From a virus, in the IMG/VR virus record IMGVR_UViG_3300045988_004551, positions 1-5,665 of that record: a stretch of 5,665 bases of DNA; one strand, 5' to 3'. Below the pieces are notes generated by a model, which saw only the letters and a program-made list of their open reading frames with translations, was not told the origin of the DNA and made no database searches. Numbering within the stretch: the stretch's first letter is position 1; each line of letters starts with the position of its first letter. Both the position numbers and the translations under genes were made by a program. Shown piece by piece: positions 1 to 5,665 of the stretch.

Positions 1-99
1 AAGTAACTTCAGGGAAACCGCAACAGCAAAGGCCACCGAAGCCGGAGAGACCGTGAGGCGCACATACCTCTGGGAACTCAACGAGAAAGGCGAAAAGGT
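1..99. repeat. Terminal redundancy, left copy, identical to 5567-5665. Signature of a circular genome linearised with an assembly overlap.
   Basis: Base-by-base comparison shows 1-99 identical to 5567-5665 (99/99). This implies a 5,566-nt circle. Confidence 0.95.
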
Positions 100-463
100 G
101 CTGACGCTTGAACAGGTCATCGACCAGCAGGCGGAAATCGACAGCTATATGGAAGAGACCAAGCTGGAAAACATCATCCGGAGGGCATCCATCGACCCTG
201 ACCTTGCGGCCAGACTGATGCCGGACATGGGTGGCGGACTTCAGGATGCAACCAATATGCCGGAGAATCTGATGGAGCTTCAGAACATCATGCTGCAGGC
301 CGAGCAAATCTGGAATAAAATCCCAAAAGAAATAAAGCTCAAGTTTGACAATGACGTCGATAAATTCGTGGCAAGCTTCGGAACTATCGACTGGGCAAAA
401 AATCTGGGCATTTATCAAGAAAATCCGCCTGAAGAGCCTAAAAAGGAGGAAGCCACTGAATGA
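1..463 (+). CDS. VP3: Internal scaffolding protein VP3, 3' portion. The gene crosses the window break: true start ATG 5550, and the full gene on the circle is 5550..5566 plus 1..463 (159 aa).
   Basis: The frame is open from base 2 to TGA 461-463. On the circle the same frame starts at ATG 5550, preceded by AAGGAGA (5534-5540). The C-terminal half reads ...QAEQIWNKIPKEIKLKFDNDVDKFVASF..., matching the remembered gokushovirus VP3 pattern F..LP..IR..F.NDP..F. The N-terminus MAYRS... and the ...KLENIIRRA... segment also look VP3-like. The stop overlaps the VP1 start (ATGA at 460-463). An alternative start, GTG 53 with GGAGA at 44-48, would give 136 aa. Confidence 0.8.
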   Translation, partial: SNFRETATAKATEAGETVRRTYLWELNEKGEKVLTLEQVIDQQAEIDSYMEETKLENIIRRASIDPDLAARLMPDMGGGLQDATNMPENLMELQNIMLQAEQIWNKIPKEIKLKFDNDVDKFVASFGTIDWAKNLGIYQENPPEEPKKEEATE

Positions 464-2124
464 ACAGAAACAAAGACGCAGGGTTTAACCAGGTCCCGAG
501 ACTGGACATTACAAGAAGTCGCTTCAAACGACCACAGGACGTCAAGCTAACAATGAACGCGGGCCAACTCATTCCGTTCTATGTGGACGAAGTGCTCCCG
601 GGCGACACCTTCAGCATCGACCAAGCAGCAATTATCCGTATGACAACGCCTATCTTCCCGGTTATGGACAACTGCCACATGGATATTTACTACTTCAACG
701 TACCGTGCCGTATCATCTGGGACCATTTCAAACGATTTATGGGCGAAAACGATGCCGGGCCGTGGGCGCAGACTCAGGAATACACCATCCCACAGATCAA
801 AGTAACTGGCACAGCTGACAAACCAGCACCGTACGAAGGAAGCATCATGGACTACATGGGCATTCCTACCAAGGTGAGCAAAGGAGCTGATAGTGAATTC
901 AGCATTAATGCGCTGCCATTCAGAGCCTACGCTATGATTTGGCAGGAGTGGTTCCGAGACCAAAACGTGGACAATCCGGCCATCAACAGCACCGCAGACG
1001 CAACCGTAAACTATACGGACGATGAAACCAAGGGCATGGACGCGGAAACGCCGGATTTAGAGTACATTCTTCAAAACGCATACACCGGAGGCAGACCGCT
1101 GCCGGTGAATAAGTACCACGACTACTTCACATCGGCTTTGCCGAATCCTCAGAAAGCGGGAGAACCGGTAAAAGTCCCACTGAGCGGTACAGCCGACATA
1201 TCAGTATACGAAGACAGAGATTTAACGAAACTGGCAAACCTGAATGGAAACTACAGCTGGCCAGGCCCAATGTCGTACCAATACGACAGCAAATACAATG
1301 GAAGATCTATAAGCATGGCATCGGGAGATAACATGCACTTCCTGGGCGCAAACCTGGGAGAAGCATCGGCAACAACCATCAATCAGCTGCGGCAGGCATT
1401 CCAGGTACAGAAGTACTATGAACAGCTGTCACGAGGCGGCAGCCGCTACCGCGAGATGATTTATTCGCTATTTCACACCAGAATCAGCGATAAGACAGTA
1501 CAAATTCCCGAGTATCTGGGTGGCAAGCGCATTACAATCAACATGAGTCAGGTTATCCAGACCAGTGGAACGACACAGGAAAGTCCGCAGGGCAACGCAG
1601 CGGCAATAAGCGTTACGCCATTCAATGGCAGCATGTTCACGAAAAGCTTCGAAGAGCACGGCTATGTTATCGGCGTGTGCTGCATCCGGCATGACCATAC
1701 CTACCAGCAGGGCTTGGAGCGCATGTGGAGCCGCAAGACTAATCTGGACTTCTATTATCCTGTCTTCGCAAATCTGGGCGAGCAGGCAGTTCTGAAGAAG
1801 GAGCTGTATCTCACTGGCACGGAAACTGATGAGCAGGCATTCGGCTATCAGGAAGCATGGGCAGAGTACAGAATGAAGCCAAACCGTATCAGCGGCAAGT
1901 TCCGTTCGAATGCAACGGGGACGTTGGACAGCTGGCACTACGGCGACAACTACAAGGAAACTCCCAGCTTAAGCCAGGCATGGATGAAGGAAGGAGACTC
2001 CGAAATCCAGAGGACTCTGGCCGTGGACAACGAGCCTCAGTTTATCATGGATACCGTCATCTACAATACATCTGTGAGACCTATGCCTATGTACAGCATT
2101 CCGGGCCTCGTAGACCATCACTAA
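460..2124 (+). CDS. VP1: Major capsid protein VP1 (Microviridae F/VP1 jelly-roll capsid family), 554 aa
   Basis: This is the longest ORF. AGGAGG at 444-449 lies 10 nt upstream of ATG 460. The ATGA overlap with the VP3 stop suggests translational coupling. The N-terminal region [14 protein letters not shown]..(8)..[23 protein letters not shown] is the characteristic Microviridae major capsid N-terminal signature. Size is typical of gokushovirus VP1. Confidence 0.95.
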
Positions 2125-2134
2125 GAAAGGGGGA

Positions 2135-2165
2135 AGCCCGGGGCAAAACCCCGGGCTATTTTATT
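2135..2165 (+). terminator. Intergenic GC hairpin plus U-rich tail between VP1 and VP2. Candidate partial intrinsic terminator/attenuator.
   Basis: AGCCCGGGG (2135-2143) pairs perfectly with CCCCGGGCT (2149-2157) around loop CAAAA. It is followed by ATTTTATT. It sits directly after the VP1 stop (2122-2124). Confidence 0.6.
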
Positions 2166-2972
2166 ATGGCGTTAGCAGCAATCGGCAGCGCACTACTCGG
2201 AATCGGCAAACAACTACTCCCAACAATCGCCGGAGGACTCATAAACAAGTTCCTGGGTGGAAACCTAATGGAAAGCAATGGAGGGAGCAGTCAGCACAAC
2301 GAAAGCTCGAGCCAAGGAGGCGGATACAGCAGCGCCGCCAGCGGCGTAAACCGAGAACAGAACCTGCAAGACTGGAACAGTATGCTAGGGGCAATTCAAA
2401 GCAATATGCAAAGCCAGCAGAAGTTTAACCGTAAAAGCATGTTCGAGCAAATGGGCTATAACACCATGGCGGCAATCACTCAGGGTGTGTATAACCAGAT
2501 AAGCAACAACGCAGCAATGGCCTACAACAGCGCAGAAGCAGCCAAAAACAGAGCTTGGCAAGAACAAATGAGCAGCACAGCTTATCAGCGAGCCGTGGAA
2601 GATATGCGAAAAGCAGGCATCAACCCTATCTTAGCATACCAACAGGGCGGAGCAAGCACTCCAGGAGGCGCACAAGCCACTATCAGCGGAGCAAGCATGG
2701 GACTCGCAAGCAGCAGTGCGGCGACAGCAAGCGCTCTCGGAGTAAGCCAGAACCACAACAACACATGGAGCAAAAGCGAAAGCAACTGGTACAACGCAGC
2801 ACAAGCAGTTGGAGACGCCACAAGCTGGTCACACACAAGCGCAGACAAAGCGTTAAAGGCGTTCGAAAACGTTCTGGGCCAGCTGGGAAACCTCACAAAC
2901 GACAATCCCAAAGGCAGTTCAACGAAAGACAAAGACGGCTTTGGAGGAAGCAAAGGAGGCAAATTCAAATAA
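2166..2972 (+). CDS. VP2: DNA pilot / minor capsid protein VP2, 268 aa
   Basis: ATG 2166 is the first start codon in frame after the VP1 stop; the track ORF 1857-2972 is an upstream open extension. The N-terminus is Gly/Ala/Leu-rich ([25 protein letters not shown]). A conserved pilot-protein block [21 protein letters not shown] is at 2577-2639. The C-terminal half is low-complexity and Ser/Ala/Gly/Asn-rich. An alternative internal start is ATG 2268, with GGTGGA at 2256-2261. Confidence 0.85.
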
Positions 2973-3992
2973 ATGGGATGCAATAAACCGCTAATCCGGT
3001 TTTATGTACCTCATGACAGAGAAGCGAGTGGGCGAGTGTACTCACTCGCTTCTTTTAACGAGATACACAAGACCAAAATGACATACGAAGACCTGATGTA
3101 TCGCAAAGATGTAATGATGATACCATGCGGACAATGCACAGGATGCAAACTACGCAAACGCAAAGACTGGGCCACACGAATGGAGCTGGAAGCATACAGC
3201 CACGAAAAGGAAAGCATCTGGTTTATCACACTAACCTATGATGACGACCATGTACCAACACAAGACACAGAAACAGGGGAAATCTTCAAGGGAGGCATAA
3301 ACGTCTGGAAAGGCACCTCAGAGCGTCCCAGAACGGTGCAAACTTTAAGCGTGGAGGATGTCCAACTATTCATGAAAAGGCTTAGAAAGGCCGTCAGCGG
3401 GCCTCTCAGGTACTTTCTAGCCGGAGAGTATGGAGACAACACCTCAAGACCGCACTATCACATGATACTATACGGATGGAATCCAGACGACTTAAAACCA
3501 ATTCACAAACTGTCAAGATTTGGACACTACACGAGCAATAAGCTGGTCAGAATCTGGGGACAAGGCACGGTCGATATAGCTCAAGCAACACCAGAAACAT
3601 ATAACTATGTAGCTGGATACGTGACCAAGAAACTATACGGAAACGACAAGGACAGGTATAAAAAAATGGGACTCATACCTCCATTCTGCGTGATGAGCCG
3701 AAAGCCAGGACTCGGGGACGAATGGTTTCAAAAGAATCAAGAAAGGCTATGGCAGCTTGGATACATCCAGCTGACAAACGGCAAGAGAGCAGCCATTCCA
3801 GAATATTATTGGCGAAAGCTGGAAGCTGAAAATCCTGAAAAAGCGTGGAGAATCAAGCGGTATCGACAAGAAAAAGCCATTGCGTCCCTAATCGAAAGAA
3901 ACATGGAAACTGACAAACAGTATGCCGAACAACTGGCCGATAAAGAAGCAGTCATGAAGAAGAAGATGTCCAAAGCAAAGGGCGTTTTTTAG
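2973..3992 (+). CDS. VP4: Replication initiation protein VP4 (HUH rolling-circle endonuclease, phiX174 gpA-like), 339 aa
   Basis: ATG 2973 abuts the VP2 stop (TAAATG), with AGGAGG at 2954-2959. RCR motifs are readable in the translation: motif 1 FITLTY (3222-3239), HUH motif 2 HYHMILY (3453-3473), and two-tyrosine motif 3 YVAGYVTKK (3606-3632). A Cys cluster PCGQCTGC lies at 3123-3146. Confidence 0.93.
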   Translation: MGCNKPLIRFYVPHDREASGRVYSLASFNEIHKTKMTYEDLMYRKDVMMIPCGQCTGCKLRKRKDWATRMELEAYSHEKESIWFITLTYDDDHVPTQDTETGEIFKGGINVWKGTSERPRTVQTLSVEDVQLFMKRLRKAVSGPLRYFLAGEYGDNTSRPHYHMILYGWNPDDLKPIHKLSRFGHYTSNKLVRIWGQGTVDIAQATPETYNYVAGYVTKKLYGNDKDRYKKMGLIPPFCVMSRKPGLGDEWFQKNQERLWQLGYIQLTNGKRAAIPEYYWRKLEAENPEKAWRIKRYRQEKAIASLIERNMETDKQYAEQLADKEAVMKKKMSKAKGVF

Positions 3993-4001
3993 CTCTGGTG
4001 T

Positions 4002-4059
4002 CACTCAGCCAAGTAACTATCAAGTATATATACTTGGCTGAGTGTTTTTTAGTTTTTTT
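4002..4059 (+). terminator. Strong stem-loop followed by T runs, immediately after VP4. Rho-independent terminator of the main transcription unit; a possible additional origin role is hypothetical.
   Basis: CACTCAGCCAAGTA (4002-4015) pairs perfectly (14 bp) with TACTTGGCTGAGTG (4031-4044). The loop is 15 nt (ACTATCAAGTATATA). It is followed by T6 (4045-4050) and T7 (4053-4059). Confidence 0.8.
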
Positions 4060-4063
4060 ATCA

Positions 4064-4104
4064 GCGCGCGCGCACGCGCACGTAATCGCGCACGTACACG
4101 CACG
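4064..4104. repeat. Alternating purine-pyrimidine CG/CA tract (Z-DNA-prone) containing a direct repeat of CGCGCACGTA
   Basis: GCGCGCGCGCACGCGCACGTA (4064-4084) is 21 nt of perfect Pu/Py alternation. CGCGCACGTACACGCACG (4087-4104) is 18 nt more. CGCGCACGTA occurs at 4075-4084 and 4087-4096. The tract is flanked by T-rich and AT-rich DNA. Confidence 0.85.
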
Positions 4105-4150
4105 ATTTTTATTATATTATTATTTACTTGTTGTAGTCGTAGTAGTAGGG
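4105..4150. repeat. Near-pure AT tract with TTA microrepeats, followed by GTA trinucleotide repeats. Candidate easily melted element.
   Basis: 4105-4132 (ATTTTTATTATATTATTATTTACTTGTT) has only 2 G/C in 28 nt. 4133-4147 reads GTA GTC GTA GTA GTA. Confidence 0.7.
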
Positions 4151-4199
4151 AGTGTTGAAATGTTGAATACTATGAATTTTTATCCGTGGAACGATATTT

Positions 4200-4208
4200 T
4201 GTGGTTAA
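4200..4208 (-). promoter_or_regulatory. DnaA-box-like 9-mer (TTAACCACA on the - strand, 1 mismatch to TTATCCACA)
   Basis: The + strand reads TGTGGTTAA, preceded by TTT. It is part of a repeated TTTTGTGG-WWAA unit. Confidence 0.45.
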
Positions 4209-4226
4209 TTTTGATGTTGATACTTT

Positions 4227-4235
4227 TGTGGATAA
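4227..4235 (-). promoter_or_regulatory. Perfect consensus DnaA box (TTATCCACA on the - strand)
   Basis: The + strand reads TGTGGATAA, the exact reverse complement of TTATCCACA. Confidence 0.6.
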
Positions 4236-4261
4236 CTTGTTGAATTGTTGAAAGTGTAGCA

Positions 4262-4270
4262 ATATGCACA
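4262..4270 (+). promoter_or_regulatory. DnaA-box-like 9-mer (ATATGCACA, 1 mismatch to TTATNCACA) overlapping the left arm of a hairpin
   Basis: Read directly. Its orientation is opposite to the other three boxes. Positions 4265-4270 lie in the hairpin stem 4265-4284. Confidence 0.35.
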
Positions 4271-4284
4271 AAACCATTTGTGCA
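4265..4284. other. Perfect 8-bp hairpin TGCACAAA-ACCA-TTTGTGCA
   Basis: 4265-4272 is the exact reverse complement of 4277-4284, with a 4-nt loop ACCA. Confidence 0.8.
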
Positions 4285-4290
4285 ACTTTT

Positions 4291-4299
4291 TGTGGAAAA
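4291..4299 (-). promoter_or_regulatory. DnaA-box-like 9-mer (TTTTCCACA on the - strand; fits the relaxed TTWTNCACA)
   Basis: The + strand reads TGTGGAAAA, preceded by TTTT, and lies immediately upstream of the triple TGTTGAAAG repeat. Confidence 0.45.
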
Positions 4300-4337
4300 C
4301 CTGTTGAAAGTGTTGAAAGTGTTGAAAATGTAATTAG

Positions 4338-4410
4338 AGGCAGCTCGGCAGCTGGCCGAAAGGTTACGTCATGCTCTTCGTACGGCGCACCGCGCCTAGC
4401 GCATGACCTT
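4338..4410. other. GC-rich multi-hairpin island in an otherwise AT-rich spacer. Candidate ssDNA structural element (complementary-strand origin?) or small structured RNA.
   Basis: Hairpin 1 is CAGCT-CGGC-AGCTG (4341-4354). A GAAA tetraloop mini-stem is GCC-GAAA-GGT (4355-4364). An outer 7-bp stem GTCATGC (4368-4374) / GCATGAC (4401-4407) encloses the inner hairpin GGCGC-ACC-GCGCC (4384-4396) and the CGTACG palindrome (4379-4384). Confidence 0.6.
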
Positions 4411-4430
4411 CAATGCAAAATTCTTCTAAC

Positions 4431-4475
4431 TTTTTTTAAAAAAATCTTGACTTTTTTCTAAAAATATGGTACAAT
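4431..4475 (+). promoter_or_regulatory. Promoter P1: T7A7 UP-like tract, -35 TTGACT, 17-nt spacer, extended -10 TGgTACAAT
   Basis: TTGACT is at 4447-4452 and TACAAT at 4470-4475, with an exact 17-nt spacer. TG lies at 4467-4468. TTTTTTTAAAAAAA is at 4431-4444. The first downstream gene starts at 4504. Confidence 0.75.
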
Positions 4476-4503
4476 AAAATCACAGAAAGGAAAGGTGAAC
4501 ACC

Positions 4504-4689
4504 ATGCTGCACTTCTATGAAATCCGAAAACTTGACAAGAACGGTGAACCACACATCGTCCGAAAGCTCACAACAGAGCCAAAGATAGCAAAACAGGAGT
4601 TAAAAAAATACGCAGAAGAGAATCCGGGAGTTTATTCACTGTATCAAATTCACCAAGTAGCAGCATATTTTACGATAAAGGAGGATTGA
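4504..4689 (+). CDS. Hypothetical small protein, 61 aa (orphan; first gene after promoter P1)
   Basis: ATG 4504 is preceded by AAAGGTGA (4491-4498) at good spacing; the track's GTG 4495 lies inside the SD and is unlikely. The product is MLHFYEIRKLDKNGEPHIVRKLTTEPKIAKQELKKYAEENPGVYSLYQIHQVAAYFTIKED. I recognise no family. Confidence 0.6.
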   Translation: MLHFYEIRKLDKNGEPHIVRKLTTEPKIAKQELKKYAEENPGVYSLYQIHQVAAYFTIKED

Positions 4690-4714
4690 AAAAAAACCTC
4701 TTTTTTGATATAAT
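4686..4714 (+). promoter_or_regulatory. Promoter P2: -35 TTGAAA, 17-nt spacer, extended -10 TGaTATAAT
   Basis: TTGAAA is at 4686-4691 and overlaps the TGA stop (4687-4689) of the 61-aa ORF. TATAAT is at 4709-4714, TG at 4706-4707, and the spacer is exactly 17 nt. Confidence 0.7.
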
Positions 4715-4814
4715 GAAAATAATCAAACAGCACGAAAGTGTTCTTCTCAAATCCATTTATACAAAAATAACTTTACGAAAGAGGTGAATTGCCCTGACTC
4801 TCCAAGAAATCAAA

Positions 4815-4898
4815 ATGCTGTTTGAAAACATCCAAAAAATCCTGGCAATGCTGGACAAAATTTACCATGCAGTGACAGGCAACGAACCGGAGGCTTAA
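4815..4898 (+). CDS. Possible micro-ORF, 27 aa from ATG 4815 (34 aa if initiated at CTG 4794)
   Basis: The frame is open from 4788 to TAA 4896-4898, which ends 1 nt before the next gene's ATG 4900. A strong SD, AGAGGTGA (4780-4787), sits ~9 nt upstream of CTG 4794, whereas ATG 4815 has no clear SD. The product is (LTLQEIK)MLFENIQKILAMLDKIYHAVTGNEPEA. Confidence 0.3.
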   Translation: MLFENIQKILAMLDKIYHAVTGNEPEA

Positions 4899-4899
4899 C

Positions 4900-5127
4900 A
4901 TGGAGAAAAAACTGTGGAATGCAAGAGACCAGACCGACGAGAACCTTATGCGGGAACTGACAAAGACCTACAAGGCAATAGATGCCGCGTACAAAATGGT
5001 GCGACAGGCCGCAAACATCGAAGACGCAAAGTATTATATTGACATTGCGTTTAAGAAAAAAGCATTCGCCAGTAACATTGAGGTGGAAATCCTCAGAAGG
5101 GACATCAACCATGGCAAAGAGGAGTAA
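4900..5127 (+). CDS. Hypothetical protein, 75 aa, predicted mostly helical and charged (orphan)
   Basis: ATG 4900 is preceded by GGAGG (4889-4893) at 6-nt spacing. Its 3' end overlaps the next gene by 17 nt. I recognise no family. Confidence 0.65.
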   Translation: MEKKLWNARDQTDENLMRELTKTYKAIDAAYKMVRQAANIEDAKYYIDIAFKKKAFASNIEVEILRRDINHGKEE

Positions 5128-5230
5128 AGTTCGCAAATCCAAAGACGCGAAAATCTATAACAAGACCGCTCGAAAGACAAAGGCTATCAATCTGGGAAGC
5201 GGAGCGATGAGAGGAGGAATCCGGCTATGA
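5111..5230 (+). CDS. Small highly basic protein, 39 aa. Likely the DNA-binding/packaging protein (phiX174 J / chlamydiaphage ORF8 analogue).
   Basis: The product is MAKRSKVRKSKDAKIYNKTARKTKAINLGSGAMRGGIRL, with 13 of 39 residues K/R. The C-terminal MRGGIRL and internal TKAIN match my recollection of gokushovirus small basic proteins. ATG 5111 lies inside the track ORF 4982-5230. The stop overlaps the next ATG (ATGA at 5227-5230). Confidence 0.65.
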   Translation: MAKRSKVRKSKDAKIYNKTARKTKAINLGSGAMRGGIRL

Positions 5231-5325
5231 GCGCAGTATACACAGGAGTAACAGTGGCATGCCTCGCAGCAGGCCTTGTCTTCATCGTATTCGCAATCGA
5301 CATCATCAAAGAATGGTTCAAATAA
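5227..5325 (+). CDS. Unlisted 32-aa single-pass transmembrane peptide. Function unknown; candidate lysis or membrane-targeting factor.
   Basis: It is not in the ORF track because it is too short. ATG 5227 overlaps the upstream stop (ATGA). A strong SD, GAGGAGG, lies at 5211-5217 with 9-nt spacing. The product is MSAVYTGVTVACLAAGLVFIVFAIDIIKEWFK, a ~20-residue hydrophobic core with a charged/aromatic C-tail. TAA is at 5323-5325, and the next gene's SD starts right after it. Confidence 0.5.
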   Translation: MSAVYTGVTVACLAAGLVFIVFAIDIIKEWFK

Positions 5326-5335
5326 GGAGAGCAGC

Positions 5336-5572
5336 ATGAACGTATACGGAATTTTCGACAACTGCGTGATGGGCTATATCACCATCTTTACCGAACGTGA
5401 CGACAAAGTGGCCGAACGCAATTTCAAAATCGCACTGACCGATGAACGAAACATCATGAGCAAGACACCGAGTGATTATCGGCTGGTACGACTGGCAAAG
5501 TTTGACGAGAAAACGGGCCTGTTTAAGAACGAAAAGGAGAACATCTTCGATGGCGTATCGCTCAGTAAGTAA
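5336..5572 (+). CDS. Conserved gokushovirus-type small nonstructural protein (ORF5/VP5-like), 78 aa
   Basis: ATG 5336 is preceded by AAGGAGA (5324-5330); the track's earlier start at 5276 is an upstream extension. The product MNVYGIFDN..Y...F..R.D..AERNF........(N).....PSDYRLVRLAKFDEKTGLF fits the remembered pattern (Y.I.D....F..PF....D..A.R.F ... P.DY.L..LG.FD..TG) of the small ORF5/VP5 family of Microviridae. The last 6 nt (AAGTAA) lie in the terminal repeat. The 3' end overlaps the VP3 start (5550) by 23 nt. Confidence 0.7.
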   Translation: MNVYGIFDNCVMGYITIFTERDDKVAERNFKIALTDERNIMSKTPSDYRLVRLAKFDEKTGLFKNEKENIFDGVSLSK

Positions 5573-5665
5573 CTTCAGGGAAACCGCAACAGCAAAGGCC
5601 ACCGAAGCCGGAGAGACCGTGAGGCGCACATACCTCTGGGAACTCAACGAGAAAGGCGAAAAGGT
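5550..5665 (+). CDS. VP3: Internal scaffolding protein VP3, 5' portion (the same gene as 1..463; continues past the window end / around the circle)
   Basis: ATG 5550 has AAGGAGA at 5534-5540. The in-frame stop TGA at 5457-5459 bounds the frame upstream. The reading MAYRSVSNFRETATAKATEAGETVRRTYLWELNEKGEKV joins seamlessly to the ORF at the window start. Confidence 0.75.
   Translation, partial: MAYRSVSNFRETATAKATEAGETVRRTYLWELNEKGEK
5567..5665. repeat. Terminal redundancy, right copy (identical to 1-99)
   Basis: 99/99 identity with the window start. Confidence 0.95.

Follow-up and report, generated by a model that had tools for sequence, protein, structure and literature searches.

The stretch of DNA analysed here (the window; 5,665 nucleotides, positions 1 to 5,665 of the IMG/VR virus record IMGVR_UViG_3300045988_004551) holds, among the late genes of a gut gokushovirus, a short open reading frame (ORF) on the plus strand at 5227-5325, ATG to TAA, which we call TM32 and which very probably is a real gene for a membrane micro-protein. 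Its 32 codons specify the predicted single-pass peptide MSAVYTGVTVACLAAGLVFIVFAIDIIKEWFK. The ATG overlaps the TGA stop (5228-5230) of the upstream gene as ATGA, and a Shine-Dalgarno (SD) sequence, GAGGAGG, lies 9 nt before it at 5211-5217 (+), within the codons R-G-G of that upstream gene. The latter encodes a basic ORF8-like protein of 39 amino acids (aa) at 5111-5230 (+; phrog_10695, E = 6e-9), presumed to be a DNA-binding J/ORF8 analogue; the record of phage phiMH2K annotates a 38-aa "putative DNA binding protein, similar to phiX174 J". Directly after the TAA of TM32 stands a ribosome-binding site, GGAGAG (5326-5331, +), for VP5 (Phage_ORF5; PF20577, E = 1e-17; phrog_1670), whose gene extends from the ATG at 5336 to 5572 (+). 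The order of the late operon is ORF8, TM32, VP5, VP3, VP1. An earlier reading of the letters alone (the original prediction) had described the ORF, the spacing of GAGGAGG, the ATGA overlap and the SD of VP5 that follows, all of which are correct on re-reading the sequence. It had also proposed that a gene among the late genes of a gokushovirus-type phage is translationally coupled to the basic gene upstream of it, a view that the comparisons below uphold.

Nearly the whole peptide is taken up by one hydrophobic segment. The maximum Kyte-Doolittle (KD) hydropathy over a window of 17 residues is 2.8, the summed Hessa insertion energy (dG) of residues 8-24 is -2.6 kcal/mol, and AlphaFold2 predicts one uninterrupted helix over residues 2-31 with a mean predicted local distance difference test score (pLDDT) of 90.6. 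The hydrophobic core covers approximately residues 3-24 and is followed by the conserved tail (A/G)I(D/N)IIK(E/D/N)W. Hydropathy, Hessa dG and AlphaFold together bear out the single hydrophobic helix with an amphipathic charged tail that had been described for this product. An ORF of this kind is not readily produced by base composition: among 300 random genomes generated to the same composition by a first-order Markov model, none contained an ORF of 25-60 aa with a KD maximum of at least 2.3 over 17 residues.

The comparative sample consists of 8 GenBank relatives and 62 IMG/VR contigs collected with VP5 as bait. The slot between ORF8 (ending in ...MRGGIRL and its stop) and VP5 (starting with ...NVYGI[FY]D) could be classified in 71 genomes, and in 42 of them a hydrophobic ORF occupies the identical position. 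All 42 carriers start this ORF at an NTGA overlap with the ORF8 stop, 40 with GTG, one with TTG and one with ATG, the last being found only in the genome of the window. The ORFs comprise 28-42 codons, mostly with a GTG start, and represent 36 distinct peptide sequences; the frame is intact in 41 of the 42 carriers. Among the 42 copies there are one in-frame deletion of 10 codons, one extension by 4 codons and one frameshift (L012/L081). Two homologous forms can be distinguished. Class A, the 32-aa form, reads MSAV...(A/T)I(D/N)IIK(E/D/N)WFK; after its stop (TAA or TGA) come a GGAG ribosome-binding site and the ATG of VP5. Class B, the 38-aa form, reads MNI...GIDIIKNW(R/K).K, and its stop forms an ATGA overlap with the VP5 start. 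The three genes are hence chained through overlaps in class B, and the separate ribosome-binding-site arrangement of VP5 is specific to the 32-aa form. A ladder of small residues with small-xxx-small spacing (A3-G7-A11-A15) is present in both transmembrane (TM) forms, and the positions M1, I26, K28 and W30 are invariant in the alignment of both, i.e., across the 42 syntenic homologues. The sequence GAGGGGG or GAGGAGG is conserved in all relatives.

Nucleotide variation and entropy among the copies differ by codon position in the order 3 > 1 > 2. The pooled ratio of nonsynonymous to synonymous polymorphism (pN/pS) is 0.41 in class A and 0.46 in class B, at a pS of about 0.35-0.40, compared with 0.10 in VP5 and 0.04-0.06 in the ORF8-like protein, which is nearly invariant across the 71 genomes. 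Judged by these substitution patterns, TM32 is translated, and moderate purifying selection acts on it to keep the helix hydrophobic and the tail specific. Both a syntenic short hydrophobic ORF in related microviruses and purifying selection on it, which the original prediction had named as checks, were thereby found. That the ORF is non-functional, a neutral insertion that stayed open by accident, is barely credible. Such an accident would agree with the dispensability of TM32, with the one frameshifted copy (L012/L081) and with a constraint weaker than that on the neighbouring genes, but it leaves unexplained that 41 of 42 copies are open at a pS of about 0.35-0.4, that the codon-position pattern and a pN/pS below 0.5 point to coding, that the start and stop architecture is conserved and that no random genome out of 300 gave a comparable ORF. 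The last result, together with the open frame in 41 of 42 carriers, excludes chance as the source of TM32. The ORF had further been called unlisted. This holds for the GenBank relatives, none of which annotates the slot ORF, but not for the protein records, where identical or related peptides have been deposited from gene callers as "hypothetical protein [Microviridae sp.]" (DAW87971.1, DAL26840.1).

In the other 29 of the 71 genomes the slot ORF is cleanly absent. The ORF8 stop then overlaps the VP5 start directly, as GTGA or ATGA, and the GAGGAGG-type site inside ORF8 serves VP5. Because VP5 is directly coupled in these TM-less relatives, we interpret the overlap and the ribosome-binding site as the ancestral coupling signals of VP5. 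Comparison of the slots indicates that TM32 is the occupant of VP5's coupled-start slot, and that VP5 acquired a new start. The claim that GAGGAGG and the overlap are signals of the TM32 gene is consequently right in one respect only: they show the occupant of the slot to be translated, but the site did not evolve for TM32, as it lies inside conserved ORF8 codons and drives VP5 wherever TM32 is missing. A similar division applies to the statement that interruption or lack of conservation in close relatives would speak against the gene, since the ORF is conserved where it is present but absent from a large part of the relatives. In trees of the short genes class A forms nearly one clade, and class B and TM-less genomes are interleaved, which implies that the gene was either lost repeatedly or transferred by recombination. 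At its first codons TM32 resembles VP5 (MS.VY and MN..); the two junctions agree at 7-9 of 14 bases and have short imperfect repeats in common. An origin by duplication of the 5' region of VP5 lacks statistical support, as alignments over the whole ORF score about like shuffles (z -1 to 2.5), and is kept as a lead only; blastn within the genomes revealed no paralogous source of the insert.

The location of TM32 exactly between the coupled starts of ORF8 and VP5 has to be considered in its own right, because the insertion changed VP5 initiation by providing a new SD and ATG (32-aa form) or a second ATGA overlap (38-aa form). TM32 could accordingly be a non-essential tuning protein like K of phiX174, or mainly a translational device: as a small membrane protein it would adjust burst size or timing without lysing the cell, or its translation would set the amount of VP5. 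A dispensable small hydrophobic protein, K, does exist in phiX174, and the record of phiMH2K labels orfN "similar to phiX174 E and K proteins". We nevertheless regard this role as decidedly unlikely, since amino-acid features and not ORF length alone are under selection, as seen from the hydrophobicity kept over 36 sequences, the invariant I26, K28 and W30 and the low variability of codon position 2; homology to K is likewise lacking. The stoichiometric coupling of TM32 translation to a presumably packaged DNA-binding protein would also be expected if TM32 were a virion-associated, membrane-active peptide, packaged with ORF8 and the DNA and, once set free at entry, helping the VP2 pilot protein across the membrane. 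Small internal lytic peptides are indeed known from non-enveloped eukaryotic viruses. However, TM32 is missing in 41% of relatives with near-identical capsid genes, the solved gokushovirus capsids are not reported to hold such a component, and so hydrophobic a helix would hardly stay soluble within a T=1 capsid, so that a virion role appears very improbable.

A search of the whole genomes of the TM-less phages for compensating small hydrophobic ORFs yielded only p27, an unannotated hydrophobic micro-ORF of 27 codons (4160-4243, +; MLNTMNFYPWNDILWLILMLILLWITC) with GGGAG 8 nt upstream. It is located in the "noncoding" region after VP4, where it overlaps an oriC-like DNA element. The state of p27 was scored in 67 whole contigs. 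It is intact in 23-24 of 28 TM-less genomes and in 9 of 14 class B genomes, the rest of the latter being mostly incomplete contigs. In class A, by contrast, p27 is intact in 11 of 24 genomes and disrupted in 13. These 13 carry at least six distinct mutations that introduce a stop codon or remove the start (most often TGG changed to TAG or TGA); the DNA around p27 is still about 90-95% identical. The pN/pS of p27 is 0.20 in TM-less and class B genomes, with 2, 7 and 13 variable sites at the three codon positions (p = 0.016), and 0.42-0.51 in class A, where the codon periodicity is gone. The association between class A and p27 disruption has a Fisher p of 0.003, uncorrected for phylogeny, and the only genome with a frameshifted TM32 has p27 intact. 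On this pattern p27 is probably a real micro-gene that came under weaker constraint in the lineage where the 32-aa TM form became fixed. Relaxation in class A is what functional redundancy would predict, and suggests that TM32 and p27 are partly redundant membrane peptides. The presence of multiple single-gene lysis genes (sgls) per genome, and the decay of redundant ones, has been described in RNA phages by Chamakura et al. (PMC7693330).

Patchy presence and clean loss among very close relatives are the classic signature of a non-essential, niche-dependent gene, and the moderate constraint on TM32 (pN/pS 0.41-0.46, against 0.04-0.10 in its neighbours) agrees with this. Both observations favour the main rival to a lytic role, in which TM32, as an accessory protein of the membrane, would serve superinfection exclusion or some other function at the host interface. 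The peptide would sit in the membrane of the infected cell and block the DNA delivery of related phages, or modulate a host membrane protein, and its conditional usefulness would explain the frequent loss. Cells carrying gokushoviruses do show superinfection immunity by a mechanism that is unknown (PMC7062461, Figure 5 legend). On the other hand, no PADLOC or other family match supports such a function, the decay of p27 specifically in the 32-aa clade is left unexplained, and a lytic phage with a single constitutive operon would presumably gain little from exclusion late in infection. We therefore consider it rather improbable.

The DNA at p27 provides a hint at the host. A 20-mer over the ribosome-binding site and start of p27 occurs in exactly three GTDB genomes, all of them metagenome-assembled genomes (MAGs) of uncultured Clostridia/Clostridiales, and in all three it sits in the dnaA-dnaN intergenic region. 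In Firmicutes this region is the unwinding part of oriC. The stretch shared between the phage and the MAGs extends over 54-63 nt at 81-85% identity (6027-6080 in L159, 3872-3926 in L161 and 653-713 in L160), and the shared module consists of an AT-rich run, TAG/TAA trinucleotide repeats (in the phage GTAGTCGTAGTAGTAG), GGGAG and tandem TGTTGAAATGTTGAA. The repeats of the phage match the DnaA-trio consensus 3'-GAT-5' (PMC10201434). In addition, at 4227-4235 the phage possesses TGTGGATAA, a perfect DnaA box, and elsewhere there are more copies of the TGTTGAA repeat; the parts of the oriC-like element in the window lie at 4108-4170, 4227-4235, 4238-4258 and 4300-4330. In 596 Gb, chance alone would yield a given 20-mer about once, and the exact match alone is therefore weak evidence. 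The extended match, for which we estimate an E of about 1e-2 to 1e-3, together with the same context in two divergent species and the functional coherence of the parts, makes it a credible lead. We infer that the host is probably a Clostridia bacterium and that the phage may recruit its DnaA. The strong SD sites found on every gene of the genome fit a Clostridia host. A scan of GTDB genomes with VP1 returned no prophage.

Two further structures are found on the plus strand between VP4 and this module. Directly after the VP4 stop, a hairpin at 4002-4044 with a perfect 14-bp outer stem within a fold of 17 pairs (-15.9 kcal/mol, z = -6.5) precedes a T-run and may act as a terminator or as a signal for replication or packaging. 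Further on, before the AT-rich, oriC-like module, purines and pyrimidines alternate over a tract of about 40 nt, GCGCGCGCGCACGCGCACGTAATCGCGCACGTACACGCACG, at 4064-4103.

The circular complete gokushovirus genome measures 5566 nt. Window positions 1-99 recur as 5567-5665, and this terminal direct repeat of 99 nt at both ends identifies the window as an assembled circular genome. The nearest GenBank records are gokushoviruses from human, monkey and pig faeces, at 75-85% nucleotide identity. VP1, the major capsid protein (PF02305), is encoded at 460-2124. Profile searches identified the VP2 pilot protein, which has an N-terminal hydrophobic segment, at 2166-2972, the VP4 replication initiator at 2973-3992, and VP3, a scaffold of the Chlamydia-phage type, which begins at 5550 and wraps round to 463 across the circle junction. 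Upstream of ORF8 there are two small plus-strand ORFs. One, of 64 aa (4495-4689), lies in a variable region where unrelated ORFs replace it in some relatives, and the other, of 75 aa (orf75; 4900-5127), is conserved in all close relatives. Both are soluble, and neither matched a family in Pfam, PHROG or NCBIfam.

Two promoter-like sites are present on the same strand, each recognised by consensus matches only. The first (4447-4475; TTGACT-17-TACAAT with an extended -10 TG, 10 of 12 matches) stands at the head of the block of small ORFs and late genes. The second (4686-4714; TTGAAA-17-TATAAT with TG, 11 of 12 matches) is situated upstream of orf75, ORF8, TM32, VP5, VP3 and VP1. The probable end of the transcript carrying TM32 is a terminator-like hairpin after VP1 (2135-2157, +), with a stem of 9 bp, 8 of them G-C pairs, and a following T-run. 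VP2 starts at 2166, just 9 nt past this GC-rich hairpin; given its position between VP1 and VP2, expression of VP2 and VP4 would need read-through or another promoter.

Neither TM32 nor its 38-aa form nor p27 matched any family in Pfam, PHROGs, NCBIfam or PADLOC. In particular, TM32 does not match the phiX174 E family (Pfam Microvir_lysis) or any other Pfam, PHROG or NCBIfam family at E <= 0.01-1, no holin family of Pfam or PHROG recognised it, and no PADLOC model for superinfection exclusion or defence matched either TM form or p27 at E <= 1. A phmmer search of the 32-aa peptide against 1.84 billion representatives returned only the peptide itself and one sibling cluster, with the poor sensitivity inherent in a query of 32 aa, and a scan of IMG/VR with a pattern drawn from the family alignment found only contigs already known. 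The family looks confined to this clade. A lipoprotein (lipobox L-[AS]-[GA]-C) or a secretory signal peptide was rejected for TM32, because its N-terminus is uncharged, its cysteine lacks conservation (F or A stands there in many 32-aa variants) and no mature part follows. A search of the literature found no paper describing TM32.

How gokushoviruses lyse their hosts is unknown, save for occasional acquired M15 peptidases (PMC3394797, PMC7062461, PMC9239249, PMC12596118), and protein E is confined to Alphatrevirus (PMC12596118). The premise of the original prediction, that these phages have neither a homologue of E nor an established lysis mechanism, is thus supported by the literature (PMC7062461, PMC3394797, PMC12596118), and E is absent from the genome studied here. 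The same is true of muralytic enzymes: the scan of all ORFs gave VP1-VP5, the ORF8-like protein and the two small ORFs, without any peptidase, lysozyme or endolysin domain. Screens of RNA phages for sgls (PMC7693330) selected ORFs of at least 25 codons that are preceded by an SD and encode a transmembrane domain. TM32 has 32 codons and an ATG start, where the screen admits ATG, GTG or TTG; it has GAGGAGG 9 nt upstream and a stop/start overlap, and these signals are present in all 42 carriers; and a transmembrane domain is predicted by a KD maximum of 2.8, a Hessa dG of -2.6 kcal/mol and the AlphaFold helix. Because the genome lacks a muralytic enzyme and E, because TM32 has these features of sgls and because it resembles LysM of levivirus M, we rank first a role as an envelope effector of the single-gene-lysis or membrane-depolarising type, which we put forward as possible, somewhat short of probable.

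Under such a role, ribosomes terminating on ORF8 would re-initiate on TM32, so that the peptide would be made together with the structural proteins. It would insert in the cytoplasmic membrane of the host. Its N-terminus would probably face outwards and its C-terminus, rich in lysine and arginine, inwards, an orientation favoured by the charge of +2 to +3 in the C-terminal flank of the 38-aa form. Late in infection TM32 would then compromise the cell envelope. It might bind an integral-membrane step of the supply of cell-wall precursors, as E does with MraY or LysM with MurJ, or alternatively oligomerise via its small-residue face and collapse the membrane potential, which would lead to autolysis. 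Partial redundancy with p27 would fit the rapid birth, turnover and decay of the single-gene lysis genes of RNA phages. An extension of this idea, which we consider unlikely, is that TM32 (or its 38-aa form, TM38) and p27 are independently born, interchangeable single-gene lysis peptides of a Clostridia-infecting gokushovirus lineage. TM32 would then have been created by an insertion that captured the coupled translation start of VP5, and p27 would have arisen in a replication element resembling the host oriC, the GC cluster of which became the ribosome-binding site of p27.

Several points weigh against a lytic role. TM32 is dispensable, being missing from 29 of 71 close relatives, and with such clean absence it cannot be the sole, essential lysis gene of the lineage. 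Four genomes (MG945423, L102, L122 and L137) have neither an intact TM32 nor an intact p27, and no other small hydrophobic ORF was found in these four; lysis can apparently proceed there without either peptide, unless the assemblies are defective or incomplete. The association between TM32 and p27 is uncorrected for phylogeny, and the 32-aa form is essentially one clade. Moreover, p27 is itself a contender for this role. It overlaps a conserved DNA element, so that its conservation, including that of the "SD" and the ATG, reflects in part constraint on the DNA rather than on a peptide. TM32, being coupled to the abundant ORF8 product, is predicted to be expressed at a rather high level, and lysis timers usually are not. 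Protein E of phiX174 is poorly expressed. A transmembrane domain alone is weak evidence, as 178 of 293 transmembrane-domain candidates had no phenotype in E. coli (PMC7693330). Finally, the hint at a Clostridia host sits badly with the single-gene lysis (Sgl) proteins characterised so far, all of which come from phages of Gram-negative hosts (PMC10707117). In sum, the interpretation given in the original prediction is supported in part, and TM32, with p27 probably sharing its role, is a reasonable, albeit unproven, candidate for a lysis or envelope effector.

Gokushoviruses are among the most abundant single-stranded DNA phages in guts and oceans; E of phiX174, the only understood microvirus lysis protein, is restricted to one genus. 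The question of lysis is now directly testable, as the peptides (32-38 aa and 27 aa) can be synthesised and natural knock-outs, as well as presence/absence variants, exist in the databases. If TM32 and p27 were lysis peptides, Gokushovirinae would have their first identified lysis genes, and Sgl-type effectors would for the first time be known to act on a Gram-positive host; if they acted as "protein antibiotics", they would indicate where the envelope of gut Firmicutes is vulnerable. The significance is limited by the uncultured host and by the exclusion of an essential role. Should TM32 instead prove to be an exclusion or tuning factor, it would still be a selected, unannotated micro-gene overlooked by current microvirus annotation.

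Among cultured gokushoviruses, the parallels come from phiMH2K and are loose ones only. They are orfN, which has one transmembrane segment, and an unannotated hydrophobic ORF of 26 codons, MEIPVLDPTTLILALTLLILKSYPLF, at 3392-3472 (+) of the phiMH2K record (L075, AF306496), with the strong SD AAGGAG. The latter lies between Vp5 and the J-like DNA-binding gene of this Bdellovibrio phage, i.e., in the neighbourhood that TM32 occupies. A survey of 35 distant gokushovirus loci for analogous small transmembrane ORFs gave too noisy a picture to be read, since the coding strand is rich in hydrophobic ORFs that are off-frame. One distant gokushovirus clade repeatedly shows a conserved, GTG-initiated ORF of about 65 aa that has an SD and encodes two transmembrane segments. 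It is located some 400-600 nt downstream from the start of VP5 (1935-2132 in L164, 2096-2293 in L166 and L167, 2095-2295 in L170 and L171, all +), where it is probably overprinted on a structural gene.

The closest likeness in kind is to LysM (SglM) of levivirus M, a single-pass protein of 37 aa that inhibits MurJ (PMC12506998). TM32 has a similar length (32-38 aa), and in both one transmembrane helix makes up nearly the whole protein. Like the Sgls, TM32 is found in a minimal phage genome without an endolysin and has their operational features (PMC7693330; PMC12506998); it is restricted to one lineage without detectable homologues elsewhere, shows patchy turnover and is accompanied by a second, decaying candidate, p27. 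In contrast to them, it has no sequence similarity to LysM or other Sgls, is a stand-alone ORF instead of an embedded or overprinted one, is coupled to an abundant structural gene and is dispensable in many relatives; its probable host belongs to the Clostridia rather than to Gram-negative bacteria, and its role in lysis is that of a candidate only.

With the MraY inhibitor E of phiX174, TM32 shares the virus family and a layout in which the transmembrane helix stands at the N-terminus and a basic or charged part on the cytoplasmic side comes after it; its genome, too, is devoid of muralytic enzymes and holds no other candidate directed at the envelope. E differs in that it has 91 aa, is overprinted in gene D and occurs only in Alphatrevirus (PMC12596118), whereas the 32-aa TM32 is not overlapped. 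K of phiX174 and orfN of phiMH2K resemble TM32 as small hydrophobic microvirus membrane proteins that are non-essential or uncharacterised, but they have 56-109 aa, are overprinted in the replication gene and show no sequence similarity, while TM32 has a slot of its own in the late operon. Pinholins and type I toxin-like peptides (S21 pinholin, TisB, Fst) are comparable in their short helix, small-residue face and charged C-terminal end, and A/G/S at positions i, i+4, i+8 and i+12 of TM32 would be compatible with the formation of an oligomeric pore or leak. This likeness to depolarising peptides we take to be compositional only; unlike in those systems, the genome has no partner endolysin or signal-anchor-release (SAR) endolysin, and TM32 has no dual-start motif, second transmembrane domain or antisense RNA context. 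Standing outside any described family, TM32 belongs in kind with the small single-pass membrane proteins of minimal phages, such as E, K, LysM and other Sgls.

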